From the NCBI GenBank assembly GCA_902524285.1, contig CABZCR010000001.1, forward strand, positions 81,774 through 145,773: a DNA stretch of 64,000 bases, read 5' to 3'. Under the pieces are notes generated by a model, which ran no database searches, was not told the origin of the DNA, and worked only from the letters and a program-made list of their open reading frames with translations. The DNA comes from an uncultured Pelagibacteraceae bacterium. Its GTDB lineage: Bacteria > Pseudomonadota > Alphaproteobacteria > Pelagibacterales > AG-422-B15. Every line of letters begins with the position of its first letter. Position 1 is the first letter of the stretch. Position numbers and translations under genes: made by a program. Of the stretch, positions 4,741-19,651 are shown piece after piece.

Positions 4741-4830
4741 GGAAAGGTGGCCGAGTGGTTGAAGGCGCACGCTTGGAAAGCGTGTATGCGGGTGACCGTA
4801 TCGTGGGTTCGAATCCCATCCTTTCCGCCA
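4741..4830 (+). tRNA. tRNA-Ser (anticodon GGA)
   Basis: 90-nt cloverleaf. Acceptor stem GGAAAGG/CCTTTCC; anticodon stem CACGC/GCGTG with loop TTGGAAA; long variable arm; T-loop GGTTCGAATCC; encoded CCA. It is a GC-rich island in AT-rich DNA. Confidence 0.93.
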
Positions 4831-8012: not shown

Positions 8013-9215
8013 ATGCAGTTATTTAGACATTCTTATTCAACGTTAGTAATTATTGGAGGCTGCATACTCTTGCTTGTCTCATTCGGTATAAGGCATTCTT
8101 CTGGTCTTTATTTGATCCCCATTTCTGAACATATACAAACTGGTAGAGAAGTATTTGGGTTTGCCATTGCAATACAGTTTCTTATGATTGGCATCGGATC
8201 ACCAATTTTTGGTGCCATAGCAGATAAATATAGTTCATCAGTAGCTGGTCTATTAGGAGTAATTTTCTTTTTAATTGGACTTTACTTAATGTCGCTTGTT
8301 GAAGGTTCATTACTTCTTATAGTTTCACAAGTAATTTTTGGATTTGGATGCGCTGGATGTGGCACTGCTGTAATATTAGGAGCTGTTGGTAAAGCTGTAA
8401 CAGGCAAATACCAAACATTATCTCTAGGAGTCGTAATGGCTGCAGGCTCGCTAGGTCAATTTTTGATCGTTCCTCTTACAGGCTTCTTAATTGAAATGAG
8501 TGATTGGCAAAGATCAATTTTATATCTTTGTTTTATTTCACTCATTATGATTTTATTCTCCCTTGTCTTAACAAAGCATTCATCCAAAAGTGGAGAAGAT
8601 GATGAAGTTAATAGATCTTTAGCATCTGTCTTAAATGAAGCCTTTGCAAATAAGAGCTATGTCTTACTGACAATTGGTTTTTTTGTTTGTGGTTTTCATA
8701 TATCGTTTATAGCAACTCATCTACCTGCATACCTCGATGATTTATTTTTGCCCATGTGGATCGGTTCCTGGTCTTTAGCACTAATCGGTTTATTTAATGT
8801 AATAGGCACACTTGTTTTCGGTCACTTAGGTGACCTAAGGTCTAAAAAAAATCTCCTGGTAATTCTATACACTTTACGTGCCTTACTGTTCTTGGTATTT
8901 ATCTTTTTGCCTAAAACTGAAATTACAGTTTTAATTTTTGCATCACTTCTTGGGATACTATGGCTATCTACAGTGCCTCTTACCAGTGGAATTATATCAG
9001 TTATTTTTGGATCCAAGTATATGTCTATGCTATATGGGTTTACTTTCTTATCTCACCAAGTCGGTTCGTTTGTTGGGTCATGGTTTGGTGGTAGATTTTA
9101 CGATTACTATGGTTCTTATGATATTATGTGGTGGGCTTGTGTTATTTTAGGATTTGCATCTGCAATCGTTCATTTTCCAATAAAAGAATCACCACTGGTC
9201 AAAATGGCAAATTAA
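8013..9215 (+). CDS. MFS transporter
   Basis: 400 aa with about 12 hydrophobic segments in a 6+6 organisation around a central charged loop (KHSSKSGEDDEVNR). Confidence 0.85.
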   Translation: MQLFRHSYSTLVIIGGCILLLVSFGIRHSSGLYLIPISEHIQTGREVFGFAIAIQFLMIGIGSPIFGAIADKYSSSVAGLLGVIFFLIGLYLMSLVEGSLLLIVSQVIFGFGCAGCGTAVILGAVGKAVTGKYQTLSLGVVMAAGSLGQFLIVPLTGFLIEMSDWQRSILYLCFISLIMILFSLVLTKHSSKSGEDDEVNRSLASVLNEAFANKSYVLLTIGFFVCGFHISFIATHLPAYLDDLFLPMWIGSWSLALIGLFNVIGTLVFGHLGDLRSKKNLLVILYTLRALLFLVFIFLPKTEITVLIFASLLGILWLSTVPLTSGIISVIFGSKYMSMLYGFTFLSHQVGSFVGSWFGGRFYDYYGSYDIMWWACVILGFASAIVHFPIKESPLVKMAN

Positions 9216-9292: not shown

Positions 9293-9517
9293 GTGCCTAA
9301 AAGTTCAAAAAAAAGATCATTAGTAAAGGCTCTTACCTGGAGAGTAACTGCAACAGCAGATACATTCTTAATAAGTTACTTAGTAATTTTAAAATCAGAT
9401 TTTTCAGTTCTTGAAACTGCTGGTTTAATTGCTGCATTGGAAGTTATTACAAAGATAACTATTTATTATTTTCATGAAAGAATATGGAATTCTTTATCTT
9501 GGGGTATGGAATCTTAA
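9293..9517 (+). CDS. DUF2061-type small membrane protein
   Basis: 74 aa with a GTG start. KALTWRVTATADTFLISYLV ... EVITKITIYYFHERIW matches the DUF2061 pattern as I remember it. Confidence 0.6.
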   Translation: MPKSSKKRSLVKALTWRVTATADTFLISYLVILKSDFSVLETAGLIAALEVITKITIYYFHERIWNSLSWGMES

Positions 9518-9561
9518 TTAAGTATTTTTTATTAAATATTGATTCTTATAGTAAAAACTAT

Positions 9562-9578
9562 TTATCCACTTATCCACA
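9562..9578 (+). promoter_or_regulatory. tandem DnaA-box-like sequence TTATCCAC-TTATCCACA
   Basis: 9570-9578 is a perfect TTATCCACA 9-mer. 9562-9570 is TTATCCACT (8/9). The two are head-to-tail and share one T, within AT-rich non-coding DNA. Confidence 0.45.
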
Positions 9579-9644
9579 TCGTATAAGGAGTTTTTTTAAT
9601 AAAACTTATTTAAAATATTTTTCCTTTTTGCTAATATTTTTTAT

Positions 9645-9750
9645 CGGACGAACAAAGAACGAAAGCCCTTCGGGGAGTTTGTCGGCGGGAGGCCGAGTTT
9701 CGGGGCGGAATGGAGACCTTTAGGGGTTTGTGTTGCGCCCCGTTTTTTTT
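9645..9750 (+). ncRNA. candidate structured cis-regulatory RNA (riboswitch/attenuator-like leader) or small RNA, class unknown
   Basis: This GC-rich block sits in otherwise A/T-only spacer. It contains a C(UUCG)G hairpin at 9666-9675, hairpin TCGGC-GGGAG-GCCGA at 9682-9696 and a terminator helix plus T8. A possible extended -10 (TGCTAATAT) lies at 9629-9637. It ends 28 nt before the LysE-family start codon. Confidence 0.5.
9701..9750 (+). terminator. intrinsic terminator-like helix plus T8
   Basis: CGGGGCG (9701-9707) pairs with CGCCCCG (9736-9742), followed immediately by TTTTTTTT (9743-9750). The 28-nt loop may carry extra pairing. Confidence 0.6.
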
Positions 9751-9778
9751 GCTCCCTTAAATTCTACTGCTCGTTATT

Positions 9779-10405
9779 ATGATCTTTGATTTCTCATTAC
9801 TTTACTTTTTCATACCAGTTTTTTTCATAATATCCATTACCCCAGGTTTATGCATGACACTTGCTTTAACAATGGGAATTACAATAGGCGTAAAAAATAC
9901 AATGAAAATGATGGTTGGAGAATTAATCGGAGTTTTAATTGTGGCAGGTACAGCGGTGGTAGGAGGTGGAGCGATCATCTCTTCTTTTCCAATTGCATTT
10001 GCCGTTTTCAAATATGGAGGAGGTCTTTATTTGATGTTTGTTGGTTATCAGATGATTAACTCAAGAGGATCACTGGCATTAAATTTGGATGGTTCACATT
10101 CATTTGAAATAAATTTTTTTAAGTTAGCAATGCAAGGATTTATAACTGCTGTTGCGAATCCAAAAGGTTGGGCATTTTTTATTGCCATGGTACCTGCATT
10201 TATTAATTACGAAGCAAATTTAATTCCACAAATGTCAGCGCTCGTAATAATTATTCTTATGATTGAGTTTATTTCACTTATGATTTACGCAACAGGAGGT
10301 CAAGCTTTAGGCATTATGCTAAAAAAACAAAATAATATCAGGCTTATTAATGGTTTAGCAGGTTTCTTAATGGTAGGTGTTGGTGTCTGGTTAGCTCTTA
10401 GCTAA
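9779..10405 (+). CDS. LysE/RhtB family amino-acid exporter
   Basis: 208 aa with about 6 TM segments. The N-terminal SITPGLCMTLALTMG motif resembles the LysE-family PGP motif region. Confidence 0.8.
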   Translation: MIFDFSLLYFFIPVFFIISITPGLCMTLALTMGITIGVKNTMKMMVGELIGVLIVAGTAVVGGGAIISSFPIAFAVFKYGGGLYLMFVGYQMINSRGSLALNLDGSHSFEINFFKLAMQGFITAVANPKGWAFFIAMVPAFINYEANLIPQMSALVIIILMIEFISLMIYATGGQALGIMLKKQNNIRLINGLAGFLMVGVGVWLALS

Positions 10406-14113: not shown

Positions 14114-15574
14114 ATGAAGAATAATGTATCCCTTTCTGACTCAGGGTGGAATTTGCAAAGTAATTATACCCAAATATCCGATAAGCTGTTCTCAGAATTA
14201 AAACCAGATGAAGTAACTAATCCAAGAACTGTTATTGTTAATTATGAACTGGCTAAAATGCTTGGTCTAAATTTAAAAAATATTTCAGAAAAAGACTTAT
14301 CCAATTTATTCTCAGGAAATACACTGCCTCATGGTTCAAGGCCATTTGCACAGGCTTATGCAGGACATCAATTTGGGCAATTTACAATTCTTGGTGATGG
14401 TAGAGCCCACGTCCTTGGTGAACAAGTAACTCCGGACGGTGAAATATTTGATATTCAGTATAAAGGTTCGGGGCGTACACCTTATTCAAGAGGAGGAGAT
14501 GGTAAGGCTGCATTGGGGCCAATGTTACGTGAATATCTGATTAGTGAAGCAATGTATCATTTAGGCATTCCAACTACGAGAAGTTTGGCGGTTGTTGAAA
14601 CTGGTGAAAAAGTCTACCGAGAAGTCCCTTTAAAAGGATCAATCTTAACTCGGGTAGCGAGTAGTCATATTAGAATCGGTACTTTCCAATTTTTGGCAGC
14701 GCACAAAGATTATGAAGGCATGCAAGCTCTTTTAGATTTTTCTATAAAAAGACATTTTTGTGATTTGAAATTTTCTAAAAATGTAACTGTTGAATTTATT
14801 CAAGCTGTTATGCATAAACAAATCAAATTGATAGTGGACTGGATGCGAGTTGGATTTATTCATGGTGTTATGAATACAGACAATTCAACAATATCTGGGG
14901 AGACTATTGATTATGGACCGTGTGCTTTTATGGATAGCTATGACGCTAAGACAGTCTTTAGCTCAATTGATACGCAAGGAAGATACTCTTTTGCTAATCA
15001 ACCCTCCATAATTCATTGGAACTTAGTAAGGTTGGCAGAGAGCTTGTTACCTCTCATTGATAAAAATGAAAAGAAATCAATTGAAATTGCTCAAAATACA
15101 CTAAATGAATTTAGTTCTTTATTTAAAAATGAATGGCTCCAAATGATGAGAAAAAAAATAGGAATAGAGGATCGCAGCGAGGAAGATGAAGAACTTATTA
15201 GTAACTTAGTCAATTGGATGCAAAATAAAAGCCCAGATTTTACAAATACTTTTTGCAATTTGATGAATTATAATCATGCAAATGATGAAGTGTTTGGTGA
15301 CAATGATTTTGGTACCTGGAAAAAAAATTGGCAAGAAAGAGTTAAAAATAAAGAATATTTAAAAACGATGATAAATACCAACCCAGTTTTAATTCCTAGA
15401 AATTATTTAGTTGAGGAAGCACTTAATGAGGCCGAAACGAAAGGAAAACTTAATAAATTTAATGATCTTAACAAAGCAATTTCATCGCCTTATCATATAG
15501 AAAAAGTAAATATAAAATACCTAATTACACCATGCAAAACTAATATTCCCTACAAAACTTTTTGTGGAACTTAA
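14114..15574 (+). CDS. selO: protein adenylyltransferase SelO (YdiU/UPF0061)
   Basis: 486 aa with AQAYAGHQFGQFTILGDGRA, YKGSGRTPYSRGGDG and HGVMNTDN. Confidence 0.9.
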   Translation: MKNNVSLSDSGWNLQSNYTQISDKLFSELKPDEVTNPRTVIVNYELAKMLGLNLKNISEKDLSNLFSGNTLPHGSRPFAQAYAGHQFGQFTILGDGRAHVLGEQVTPDGEIFDIQYKGSGRTPYSRGGDGKAALGPMLREYLISEAMYHLGIPTTRSLAVVETGEKVYREVPLKGSILTRVASSHIRIGTFQFLAAHKDYEGMQALLDFSIKRHFCDLKFSKNVTVEFIQAVMHKQIKLIVDWMRVGFIHGVMNTDNSTISGETIDYGPCAFMDSYDAKTVFSSIDTQGRYSFANQPSIIHWNLVRLAESLLPLIDKNEKKSIEIAQNTLNEFSSLFKNEWLQMMRKKIGIEDRSEEDEELISNLVNWMQNKSPDFTNTFCNLMNYNHANDEVFGDNDFGTWKKNWQERVKNKEYLKTMINTNPVLIPRNYLVEEALNEAETKGKLNKFNDLNKAISSPYHIEKVNIKYLITPCKTNIPYKTFCGT

Positions 15575-18501: not shown

Positions 18502-18585
18502 AAAATCAAGTCATACCTTCTATTTAGATATTAGTATTTTACAAATATAAACATAAAGTTAATTTAATTATTATTATTAAAACAA

Positions 18586-18614
18586 TTTACTTTTAGTCCA
18601 TATGTAGCTATAAG
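18586..18614 (+). promoter_or_regulatory. candidate sigma70-type promoter of cspA (TTTACT-17-TATAAG)
   Basis: -35 at 18586-18591, 17-nt spacer, -10 at 18609-18614. This implies a roughly 70-nt 5' UTR, consistent with the long csp leaders known elsewhere. Confidence 0.3.
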
Positions 18615-18693
18615 ATCCGTCTAAAGATTACGTTTTTGTTCCTTTTTCTGGAGTAATACGAAGTCTAAACTAACTTAAAAAGGAATAACAAAT

Positions 18694-18900
18694 ATGGCTA
18701 CTGGTACTGTTAAATGGTTTAATCCAAAAAAAGGTTATGGCTTTATTGCCCCTGAAGAAGGCGATAAAGATATCTTTGTTCACATCACAGCTGTTCAAGC
18801 TGCGGGTATGAAAAAATTGGATGAAGGTCAGAAACTATCATATGAAGCTGAGGAAAAAGATGGAAAAGTCTCAGCAGTTAATTTACAAGCAGCAGAATAA
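18694..18900 (+). CDS. cspA: cold-shock protein (CspA family)
   Basis: 68 aa with RNP motifs KGYGFI and DIFVH. Confidence 0.95.
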
Positions 18901-19423: not shown

Positions 19424-19651
19424 ATGAATGAAGAAAATAAAAAGAAAGTGTGGAAACTAATACAAAAAACTGGTGACGAGTTAAAAGGAAAACTACCCGA
19501 ACACCCATCACATCCAAAAGGTCGTAATCCATACGCCCACATAGCATTAGAGATTAAGAACCATTTTGGAATGTCTTATAATGAAATTTCAGATGAACGA
19601 ATACCTGAACTTGAAAAATTTATATTTTATATTCGTGATAACCCAAAATAA
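19424..19651 (+). CDS. hypothetical protein (75 aa)
   Basis: ORF with a plausible ATG and no family that I recognise (PEHPSHPKGRNPYAHIALEIKNHFG). Confidence 0.4.
   Translation: MNEENKKKVWKLIQKTGDELKGKLPEHPSHPKGRNPYAHIALEIKNHFGMSYNEISDERIPELEKFIFYIRDNPK

Follow-up and report, generated by a model that had tools for sequence, protein, structure and literature searches.

A G+C-rich block upstream of an exporter gene

The 64,000-nucleotide (nt) stretch of DNA analysed here, which we call the window, stems from an uncultured Pelagibacteraceae bacterium. On its plus strand it carries a gene for a LysE/RhtB-family exporter (9779–10405; open reading frame (ORF) of 208 amino acids (aa), PF01810, E = 1e-20), and upstream of this gene lie a DUF2061 gene (9293–9517) and an MFS transporter gene (8013–9215). 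The spacer in front of LysE holds a G+C-rich block that ends in a run of U residues, 28 nt before the LysE ATG at 9779. An initial annotation of the window had taken this block for a candidate riboswitch or attenuator of the exporter, with an independent small RNA as fallback. Based on the comparative analysis presented here, we propose, with a probability of roughly 0.7, that positions 9643–9750 encode a structured small RNA of about 105 nt in a gene of its own. The RNA would represent a new family and is possibly controlled by DnaA, and LysE would be expressed by read-through of its terminator. The LysE gene itself lies outside the conserved module to which the RNA belongs.

In composition the block is an outlier. 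A 100-nt segment placed over it has a G+C content of 56%, compared to about 20–27% in the neighbouring spacer, and its spacer reaches the highest 60-nt G+C fraction (0.67) among the 23 spacers of at least 40 nt in the window, followed by two tRNA spacers (0.62) and compared to a median of 0.26. All three hairpins listed in the initial annotation were found on the plus strand where it had placed them: CCC[UUCG]GGG at 9666–9675, the local hairpin UCGGC-GGGAG-GCCGA at 9682–9696 and a 7-bp helix formed by the inverted repeat CGGGGCG/CGCCCCG (9701–9707 with 9736–9742), which is directly followed by a U8 tract (9743–9750). With its G+C-rich hairpin running directly into eight U residues and with covariation in the stem, this site has the features of an intrinsic (Rho-independent) terminator. 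Such sites are rare in the window, as had been noted before, and this one is by far the strongest hairpin-plus-T-run site (−27.6 kcal/mol; runner-up −15.3 kcal/mol). It was overlooked by a simple terminator scan because the loop limit of that scan is 8 nt. The runner-up, with a T6 run at 19469 on the minus strand, is the only other intergenic candidate of this kind. A second seemingly G+C-rich 'spacer' (18502–18900) turned out to contain the gene of a small cold-shock protein below the 90-aa ORF cut-off.

The fold of a 143-nt segment spanning the block is more stable than that of dinucleotide shuffles (z = −1.8), although folding energy by itself is weak evidence and the real support comes from comparative conservation. 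Two covariance models, R1 and R2, score the window copy at 117 and 102 bits, respectively, and detect no further copy within the 64 kb.

Conservation, structure and predicted promoter of the RNA

Copies of the element are present in about 60 marine SAR11-like loci, where it is conserved and its flanks are not. A LysE-anchored scan with one genome per species gave 80 loci, and among these the element precedes LysE only where the exporter is at least 84% identical to that of the window. The LysE-linked copies come from single-cell genomes labelled 'uncultured Pelagibacteraceae' and form three sequence groups (A, B and C), with the window in group A. L024 and L040, with a LysE of 82–84% identity, lack the element, as does every orthologue locus more distant than these, and a covariance model found no copy in the 42 LysE loci lacking the element. 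An exact-pattern scan of metagenome contigs added copies of groups A, B and C plus two new types. Searching with the SelO protein of the window returned only matches of at least 84% identity and no added diversity; re-seeding with the SelO of locus L170 (group E) did give diversity, and the SelO-anchored look-ups provided the variants L181, L184 and L188 as well as group F (L185, L189). These look-ups also included relatives lacking the element, among them a Candidatus Pelagibacter sp. genome, and many SelO orthologue loci are without it. Twelve pattern matches in viral contigs were obtained, none of which was confirmed by the covariance model.

Across these lineages the flanking genes change. 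The order is DUF2061, RNA, LysE in the group A window, and MFS, RNA, LysE in L016 as well as groups B and C. Groups E and F have a tRNA-Ser gene, the element and SelO in succession; in L170 and L188 a gap of 20 nt separates the RNA from the SelO gene downstream, and L181, L185 and L189 also carry it upstream of SelO. In group D (L085, L115, L117, L135, L144 and L162), the RNA follows MFS, within the wider order pheS-pheT-lepA-(tRNA)-MFS, and ends at the stop codon of an ORF (87–99 aa) that runs towards it and that it faces directly in L115, L117, L135 and L162. Since the amino-acid identity between variants of this convergent ORF is 75–86%, we regard it as a real gene, and hence a role as 5' leader is excluded for the RNA of group D. 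The constant part is the RNA together with what adjoins it immediately upstream (the module). With at least four gene contexts, conservation of the element is independent of its flanking genes.

Two of these contexts have features of their own. The convergent ORF of group D, on the strand opposite to the RNA, contains a CxxC...C...CH pattern (zinc-ribbon-like) and matches no Pfam family. As the interrupted U-tract of the RNA's terminator and the stop codon of this ORF overlap, the terminator may act in both directions. Group C (L026–L041) carries a second, A+U-rich 8-bp hairpin (UUUGUAUC ... GAUACAAA, with G-U variants) in the 43 nt between U-run and LysE, just before the ATG; this hairpin is absent from group A.

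Single-sequence folds of all groups agree on two long tandem hairpins, SL1 and SL2, separated by a linker of 3–5 nt. SL1 forms the 5' domain (9644–9696, nt 2–55 of the RNA) and is, in other lineages, a single long, imperfect hairpin closed by pairing of nt 2–6 with nt 51–55. Its tip (9660–9681) consists of a CGAA/UUUG helix, a 2x2 AG/AG internal loop, a CCC/GGG helix and a UUCG tetraloop. SL2 (9701–9742) is the terminator hairpin, in which the 7-bp G+C base is continued by an imperfect extension and the tip CCU[UUAG]GGG (9717–9726). Applied to an unfitted MAFFT alignment of 36 sequences, RNAalifold recovered three helices, namely the base of the terminator and a small hairpin at each of the two tips; in the unfitted alignment 93.5% of the cells of the terminator helix are paired, and 6 of its 17 pairs show changes on both sides. 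A second covariance model, built on the two-hairpin structure, was used to align 41 sequences. In this model-fitted alignment 84% of cells are paired, compared to at most 58% with slid partners, and at 15 pairs both partners have changed with pairing maintained (6 of 9 in the outer helix of SL1, 3 of 10 in its inner helix and 6 of 17 in SL2). The covariation score of 0.201 exceeds that of slid partners (at most 0.108) and was reached by none of 500 shuffles.

Examples from the outer helix of SL1 are the replacement of G-C by A-U and the series A-U, U-A, G-U; in L029 the double change A6 to U with U51 to A is visible in the raw sequences. Depending on the group, this helix reads UCGG/CCGA, CGGA/UCCG, ACGAACUGG/CUGGUUCGU or CGAUCUGGA/UCCGGAUCG. 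SL2 has 91.5% of the cells of its 17 pairs filled by paired bases in the fitted alignment, with G-C, C-G and A-U alternating at the seventh base pair and A-U, U-A and G-C in the extension. Its free energy lies between −22 and −26 kcal/mol across groups (−26.3 kcal/mol for the terminator of the window), and it is followed by U7–U9 in groups A, B, C and E and by an interrupted run (UUUCU or UUUCA) in groups D and F. The description of the block as a structured RNA with a canonical terminator was borne out, and the look at homologous loci suggested in the initial annotation yielded both conservation, in about 60 loci, and covariation.

The most conserved part of the RNA is the SL1 tip, which is 82–100% identical between all groups. 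C18-G39 and the CC/GG pairs scarcely vary, and the loop is always of the YNNG type (UUCG, UUUG, CUCG or UUAG). In group D all 22 nt of the tip are those of the window, and between L170 and the window, with SelO proteins only 54% identical, the RNA retains 65% identity overall and 82% at the SL1 tip. Both tips share one design, composed of a short helix rich in A-U pairs, a small internal loop of purines, a CCY/GGG helix and a YNNG tetraloop, and they look like duplicates of each other; in group E, the SL2 tip repeats the sequence of the SL1 tip almost exactly. The near-repeats seen in the initial annotation are therefore real and reflect two homologous hairpin tips. G-U pairs are frequent, with U-G in 22 and 40 of the 41 sequences at the two tips, respectively. 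As such pairs turn into A-C mismatches on the other strand, the structure is specific to the plus strand, and the 143-nt fold has −50.7 kcal/mol on the plus strand and −41.6 kcal/mol on the minus strand.

At the base of SL1 the window variant prefers the local hairpin at 9682–9696 (pairing probability about 0.85–0.9), to which long-range closure of SL1 is inferior by 1.8 kcal/mol. This local hairpin is specific to group A; the equivalent hairpin of group C contains an A-C mismatch in most copies, and groups D–F have other sequences. Our first structural ideas, an ACAAA/UUUGU helix and a 5' hairpin of nt 2–6 with nt 16–20, were partly compatible with the sequences (92% and 76% of cells paired) but showed little covariation, and the long-hairpin model took their place.

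Conservation starts sharply at A9643. In all 58 distinct upstream sequences, TAnnnT is found at −12 to −7 (±1) from the RNA start, with T1, A2 and T6 of the hexamer invariant and with its interior and the discriminator of 5–6 nt varying freely. Invariance of these three bases around a free interior is the signature expected of a sigma-70 −10 element. Given its placement, transcription should start at the first conserved base, at about A9643, and the RNA (plus strand) should run from there to the U-run, giving a length of about 104–108 nt. In the window, the extended −10 element TGnTAATAT (TGCTAATAT) is located at 9629–9637 (TG at 9629–9630, hexamer at 9632–9637), and the TGn extension is present in group A. 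A −35-like hexamer, TTTAAA (9609–9614), was recognised by eye 17 nt upstream of the −10 hexamer, and one can be made out at this spacing in every group, for example TTTAAT in group C, TTGAAA in group D and TTGTTA in group E; that of the window was not reported by a consensus promoter scan. The element would hence possess its own promoter, from which transcription would begin where conservation does.

Upstream of the promoter lies the second constant component of the module, a pair of tandem DnaA-box-like 9-mers in the same orientation, TTATCCAC and TTATCCACA, which share one base (9562–9578, plus strand; candidate DnaA-binding sequence of the module, TTATCCACTTATCCACA). The second box is the sole perfect TTATCCACA in the window. 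Of the 59 copies with complete upstream DNA, 58 have the pair at a distance of 80–83 nt before the first base of the RNA, the exception being L181 with a single box. The pair also occurs in the variants TTTTCCAC with TTATCCACA, TTATCCAC with ATATCCACA and TTGTCCAC with ATATCCACA. Between boxes and promoter extends an A+T-rich spacer (9579–9608 in the window) that is conserved in length and not in sequence, such that the distance from box to RNA is fixed although the spacer sequence differs wholly between groups A–F. None of the collected loci without the RNA contains the box pair, and a single 8-mer occurs in them about once per 36 kb. The unit that moves together while flanking genes change therefore comprises the box pair, about 65 nt of A+T-rich spacer including the promoter, and the RNA. 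The 8-bp register of the boxes is unusual for two DnaA monomers. Our literature searches on small RNAs of SAR11, on the SAR11 oriC and on the box-pair sequence returned nothing relevant.

In the window the module is embedded in about 9.3 kb of variable genes between tRNA-Ser(GGA) (4741–4830) and SelO (14114–15574), encoding a PALP enzyme, a gamma-glutamyltranspeptidase, the MFS, DUF2061 and LysE proteins, an Amdase-like protein, a carboxyltransferase and cytochromes. In other lineages tRNA-Ser and SelO are adjacent save for the RNA module. Repeated tRNA 3' fragments are present in L170 (1–47, 668–710 and 2223–2265), where a pilin-like gene and a methyltransferase gene lie between the fragments, and in L189; judging by these fragments, tRNA-Ser(GGA) looks like an integration hot spot. 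One public gene call of the window LysE (P0001, 9482–10405) has 307 aa, is 100% identical over 208 aa and begins about 99 codons earlier, so that it spans the RNA gene; this extension is probably an artefact of gene calling. The SelO call of L185 (521 aa) likewise reaches into the RNA. A leader peptide was considered and rejected, as neither the 79-aa ORF at 9484–9723 nor a 16-codon ORF inside SL2 is conserved in other groups.

Switch, leader, origin or independent RNA

But what is the function of such an RNA? A strong terminator shortly before an exporter gene tempts one to see a riboswitch, in which the leader would sense an amino acid or a related metabolite and control LysE by switching between terminator and antiterminator, possibly as a tandem-domain version with the second domain inside the terminator, as in NAD+-I or HMP-PP riboswitches. 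Such a reading can draw on several features of the locus: the structured RNA is promoter-proximal, its terminator ends 28 nt before LysE and 20 nt before SelO (L170, L188), its two bulged hairpins resemble each other and have invariant regions at their internal loops, with the second hairpin placed within the terminator, and a different hairpin followed by a U-run is found directly upstream of rhtB in Candidatus Pelagibacter ubique (PMC2704228). The gene contexts described above are difficult to reconcile with it. Instead of a constant position before functionally related genes, the next gene is LysE, SelO or a convergent gene, in which case there is no co-directional gene to regulate, and LysE orthologues of 82–84% identity or less do without the element. 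Furthermore, the hairpin loops are variable, and no Rfam riboswitch model matched, not even weakly. The mutually exclusive pairings that the initial annotation took for a terminator/antiterminator switch did not hold up either. We blocked the 3' arm of the terminator and folded nascent transcripts of seven lineage representatives. Blocking costs 14–16 kcal/mol, the best alternative folds differ between lineages, the blocked fold leaves the 5' arm of the terminator unpaired in groups E and F, and in the nascent-transcript folds of the seven lineages no conserved partner for this arm was found. The alternative pairings noticed at first arise because the two hairpin tips are alike. The one given as an example, AAAGCCC with GGGGUUU, would pair the 5' half of SL1 with the 3' half of SL2, and 2-nt insertions break it up in groups B and C. 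A pairing of this kind cannot compete with the terminator during transcription and is not the one required for an attenuator. Lacking an antiterminator and followed by changing genes, the element is unlikely to be a LysE-specific riboswitch, and we give a ligand-sensing switch of any such design little chance.

A second alternative is an element that acts purely in cis and constitutively. Here, the hairpins would do no more than protect the mRNA at its 5' end and hold read-through into the downstream gene at a constant low level, and the short RNA would be functionless. Downstream genes very near the terminator in groups A, B, C and E fit this idea, as do the short spacers and few regulators of SAR11-type genomes (Meyer et al. 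2009, PMC2704228). But group D retains the RNA, with an SL1 tip identical to that of the window, despite its convergent neighbour, and neither a stabiliser nor a terminator needs 22 near-invariant nt across lineages whose SelO proteins are 54% identical, nor a box pair at a fixed distance upstream. We hence consider a purely constitutive cis function improbable as well. Least probable of all, to a degree that we would hardly entertain it, is an element acting at the DNA level, that is, part of a replication origin (of the chromosome or of an integrated element) or a DnaA-titrating site, with boxes and A+T-rich stretch as its functional core and the G+C-rich hairpins serving either as features of the DNA or as a transcript that activates the origin. 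The conserved tandem boxes and the A+T-rich DNA after them, constant in length at about 65 nt, would suit such an element, the module sits at the tRNA-Ser integration hot spot with its tRNA 3' fragments in L170 and L189, and with CcnA a non-coding RNA within the Caulobacter origin sets a precedent (PMC8959179). Against this stand the number of boxes (two, and one in L181), the A+T-rich stretch being largely occupied by the promoter, strand-specific G-U pairs and a U-run that point to RNA, and the lack of a true copy among the viral contigs. The direction of transcription of pheS-pheT-lepA-tRNA-Ser is towards the module, and the 64-kb window shows no switch in GC skew; we consider it unlikely that the module is the chromosomal origin.

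The independent small RNA, which the initial annotation mentioned as its fallback, fits the data best, given the element's putative own promoter and its independence of gene context. We suggest that the sigma-70-type promoter (TTTAAA, 17 nt, TGnTAATAT) starts transcription at about A9643 and that the transcript folds into SL1 as 5' domain and SL2, with SL2 doubling as a strong Rho-independent terminator. The RNA would then act in trans or as a protein-binding RNA, and the invariant tip sequences suggest that it is recognised sequence-specifically. DnaA bound to the upstream boxes may modulate its transcription. Since the U-run ends 28 nt before LysE and 20 nt before SelO, there is no room for a separate promoter and a dependence of these genes on read-through is probable; the LysE gene of the window would thus be transcribed mainly by read-through, with the terminator acting as a fixed attenuator and not as a ligand-controlled switch.

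Several points weigh against the proposal of an independent RNA. The 5' and 3' ends are taken from the sequence alone, and a role in trans or in protein binding is what we infer; complements of the conserved G-rich segment GGGGAGUUUG occur in the window at chance level. The 41-sequence alignment (A3) was fitted to the model, which inflates its pairing counts, and sampling was confined to exact-pattern and synteny searches. According to the folding models, the closure of SL1 at its base is tentative: in group A just 4 bp can close it and the local hairpin is favoured, and group D fits a different 5' hairpin better (nt 2–6 with nt 16–20), so that the superseded hairpin may still be the real fold there. 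Finally, the closeness of LysE and SelO leaves a role in cis plausible, at least in the sense that their expression is set by read-through.

Bacteria of the SAR11 type, which rank among the ocean's most abundant cells, possess very few transcription factors and non-coding RNAs. With so few regulators, an RNA gene conserved across deep lineages likely does something central. The constant coupling to DnaA-box-like sites is a hint that regulation by RNA may be connected to replication status. One could go further and picture the unit of box pair, spacer, promoter and RNA as a riboregulator of streamlined marine alphaproteobacteria that is coupled to replication or the cell cycle, in which DnaA occupancy sets the RNA level and the invariant, duplicated tips bind a protein or mRNAs. 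We regard this extension as tentative and rather unlikely; if true, DnaA and a small RNA would be connected in regulation, and this in organisms that have hardly any regulators. In any case, the comparative context presents the RNA as the conserved unit and the exporter as an incidental neighbour.

Comparison with known RNAs

Rfam 15 (4227 models), which we take to cover the known riboswitch classes including NAD+-I and HMP-PP, was used to look for related families. At gathering thresholds, the whole window gave only two tRNAs and the signal recognition particle RNA. A permissive scan of 9500–9850 (E ≤ 10) gave only a noise match to snR62, and a scan of divergent copies (L170, L185, L188 and L117; E ≤ 5) gave no match on the element. 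The initial statement that the block matches no known riboswitch class thus stood even under permissive settings. The literature searched contained no description of the element. It appears to be a member of none of the described families tested, and the small-RNA family would accordingly be new.

The closest parallel in location is the 'rhtB associated element' of Candidatus Pelagibacter ubique, described with function unknown by Meyer et al. 2009 (BMC Genomics 10:268, PMC2704228). Like the element studied here, it is a conserved hairpin in a SAR11 spacer adjoining an rhtB/LysE gene and also adjoins other genes; U6–9 follow about half of the examples, and many have a TGnTAtatT-like sequence directly upstream (PMC2704228). 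It differs in being a single bulged hairpin with a 9-bp stem (GAUAGUCCU/AGGACUAUC), an inner AGCC/GGUU helix and a conserved 13-nt loop (consensus from the authors' Stockholm file: GAUAGUCCUn-YYUAGCCAUC-UUUAGCUCCC-GGUUUU...AGGACUAUC), and no DnaA boxes were reported for it (PMC2704228). Our element, with its two hairpins and CCY[YNNG]GGG tips, is unrelated in sequence and fold. Identity of the two was rejected on the basis of the authors' alignment, and regular expressions for the stem and core gave no match in the window and in the loci collected by then, all LysE loci included.

The NAD+-I (nadA motif) and HMP-PP (thiS motif; PMC6478431) riboswitches resemble the element in their tandem bulged hairpins or terminator-embedded aptamer near a gene. 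The element departs from them in having no Rfam match, no consistent gene association and no alternative pairing. For the association with DnaA boxes, CcnA of Caulobacter crescentus, a cell-cycle non-coding RNA inside the origin, is the only alphaproteobacterial precedent that we found in the literature (PMC8959179). Both are alphaproteobacterial non-coding RNAs physically linked to DnaA boxes, and otherwise they are unlike. CcnA is about 180 nt long, is transcribed from a CtrA-box promoter and has an active loop rich in C (PMC8959179), whereas the element has about 105 nt, is G-rich and shows no evident sequence relationship to CcnA; no CtrA box (TTAA-N7-TTAA) was seen by eye in its spacer. 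In its general layout the element resembles a generic trans-encoded small RNA, with which it shares a predicted promoter of its own, a length of about 100 nt, stem-loops, a terminator hairpin with U-tail and conservation independent of the flanks. It is set apart from this type by conserved segments that are G-rich and largely paired and offer no open seed, and by hairpins that are homologous to each other. This duplicated-hairpin design, in strict coupling with DnaA-box-like sites, would make it an unusual member of the small RNAs.

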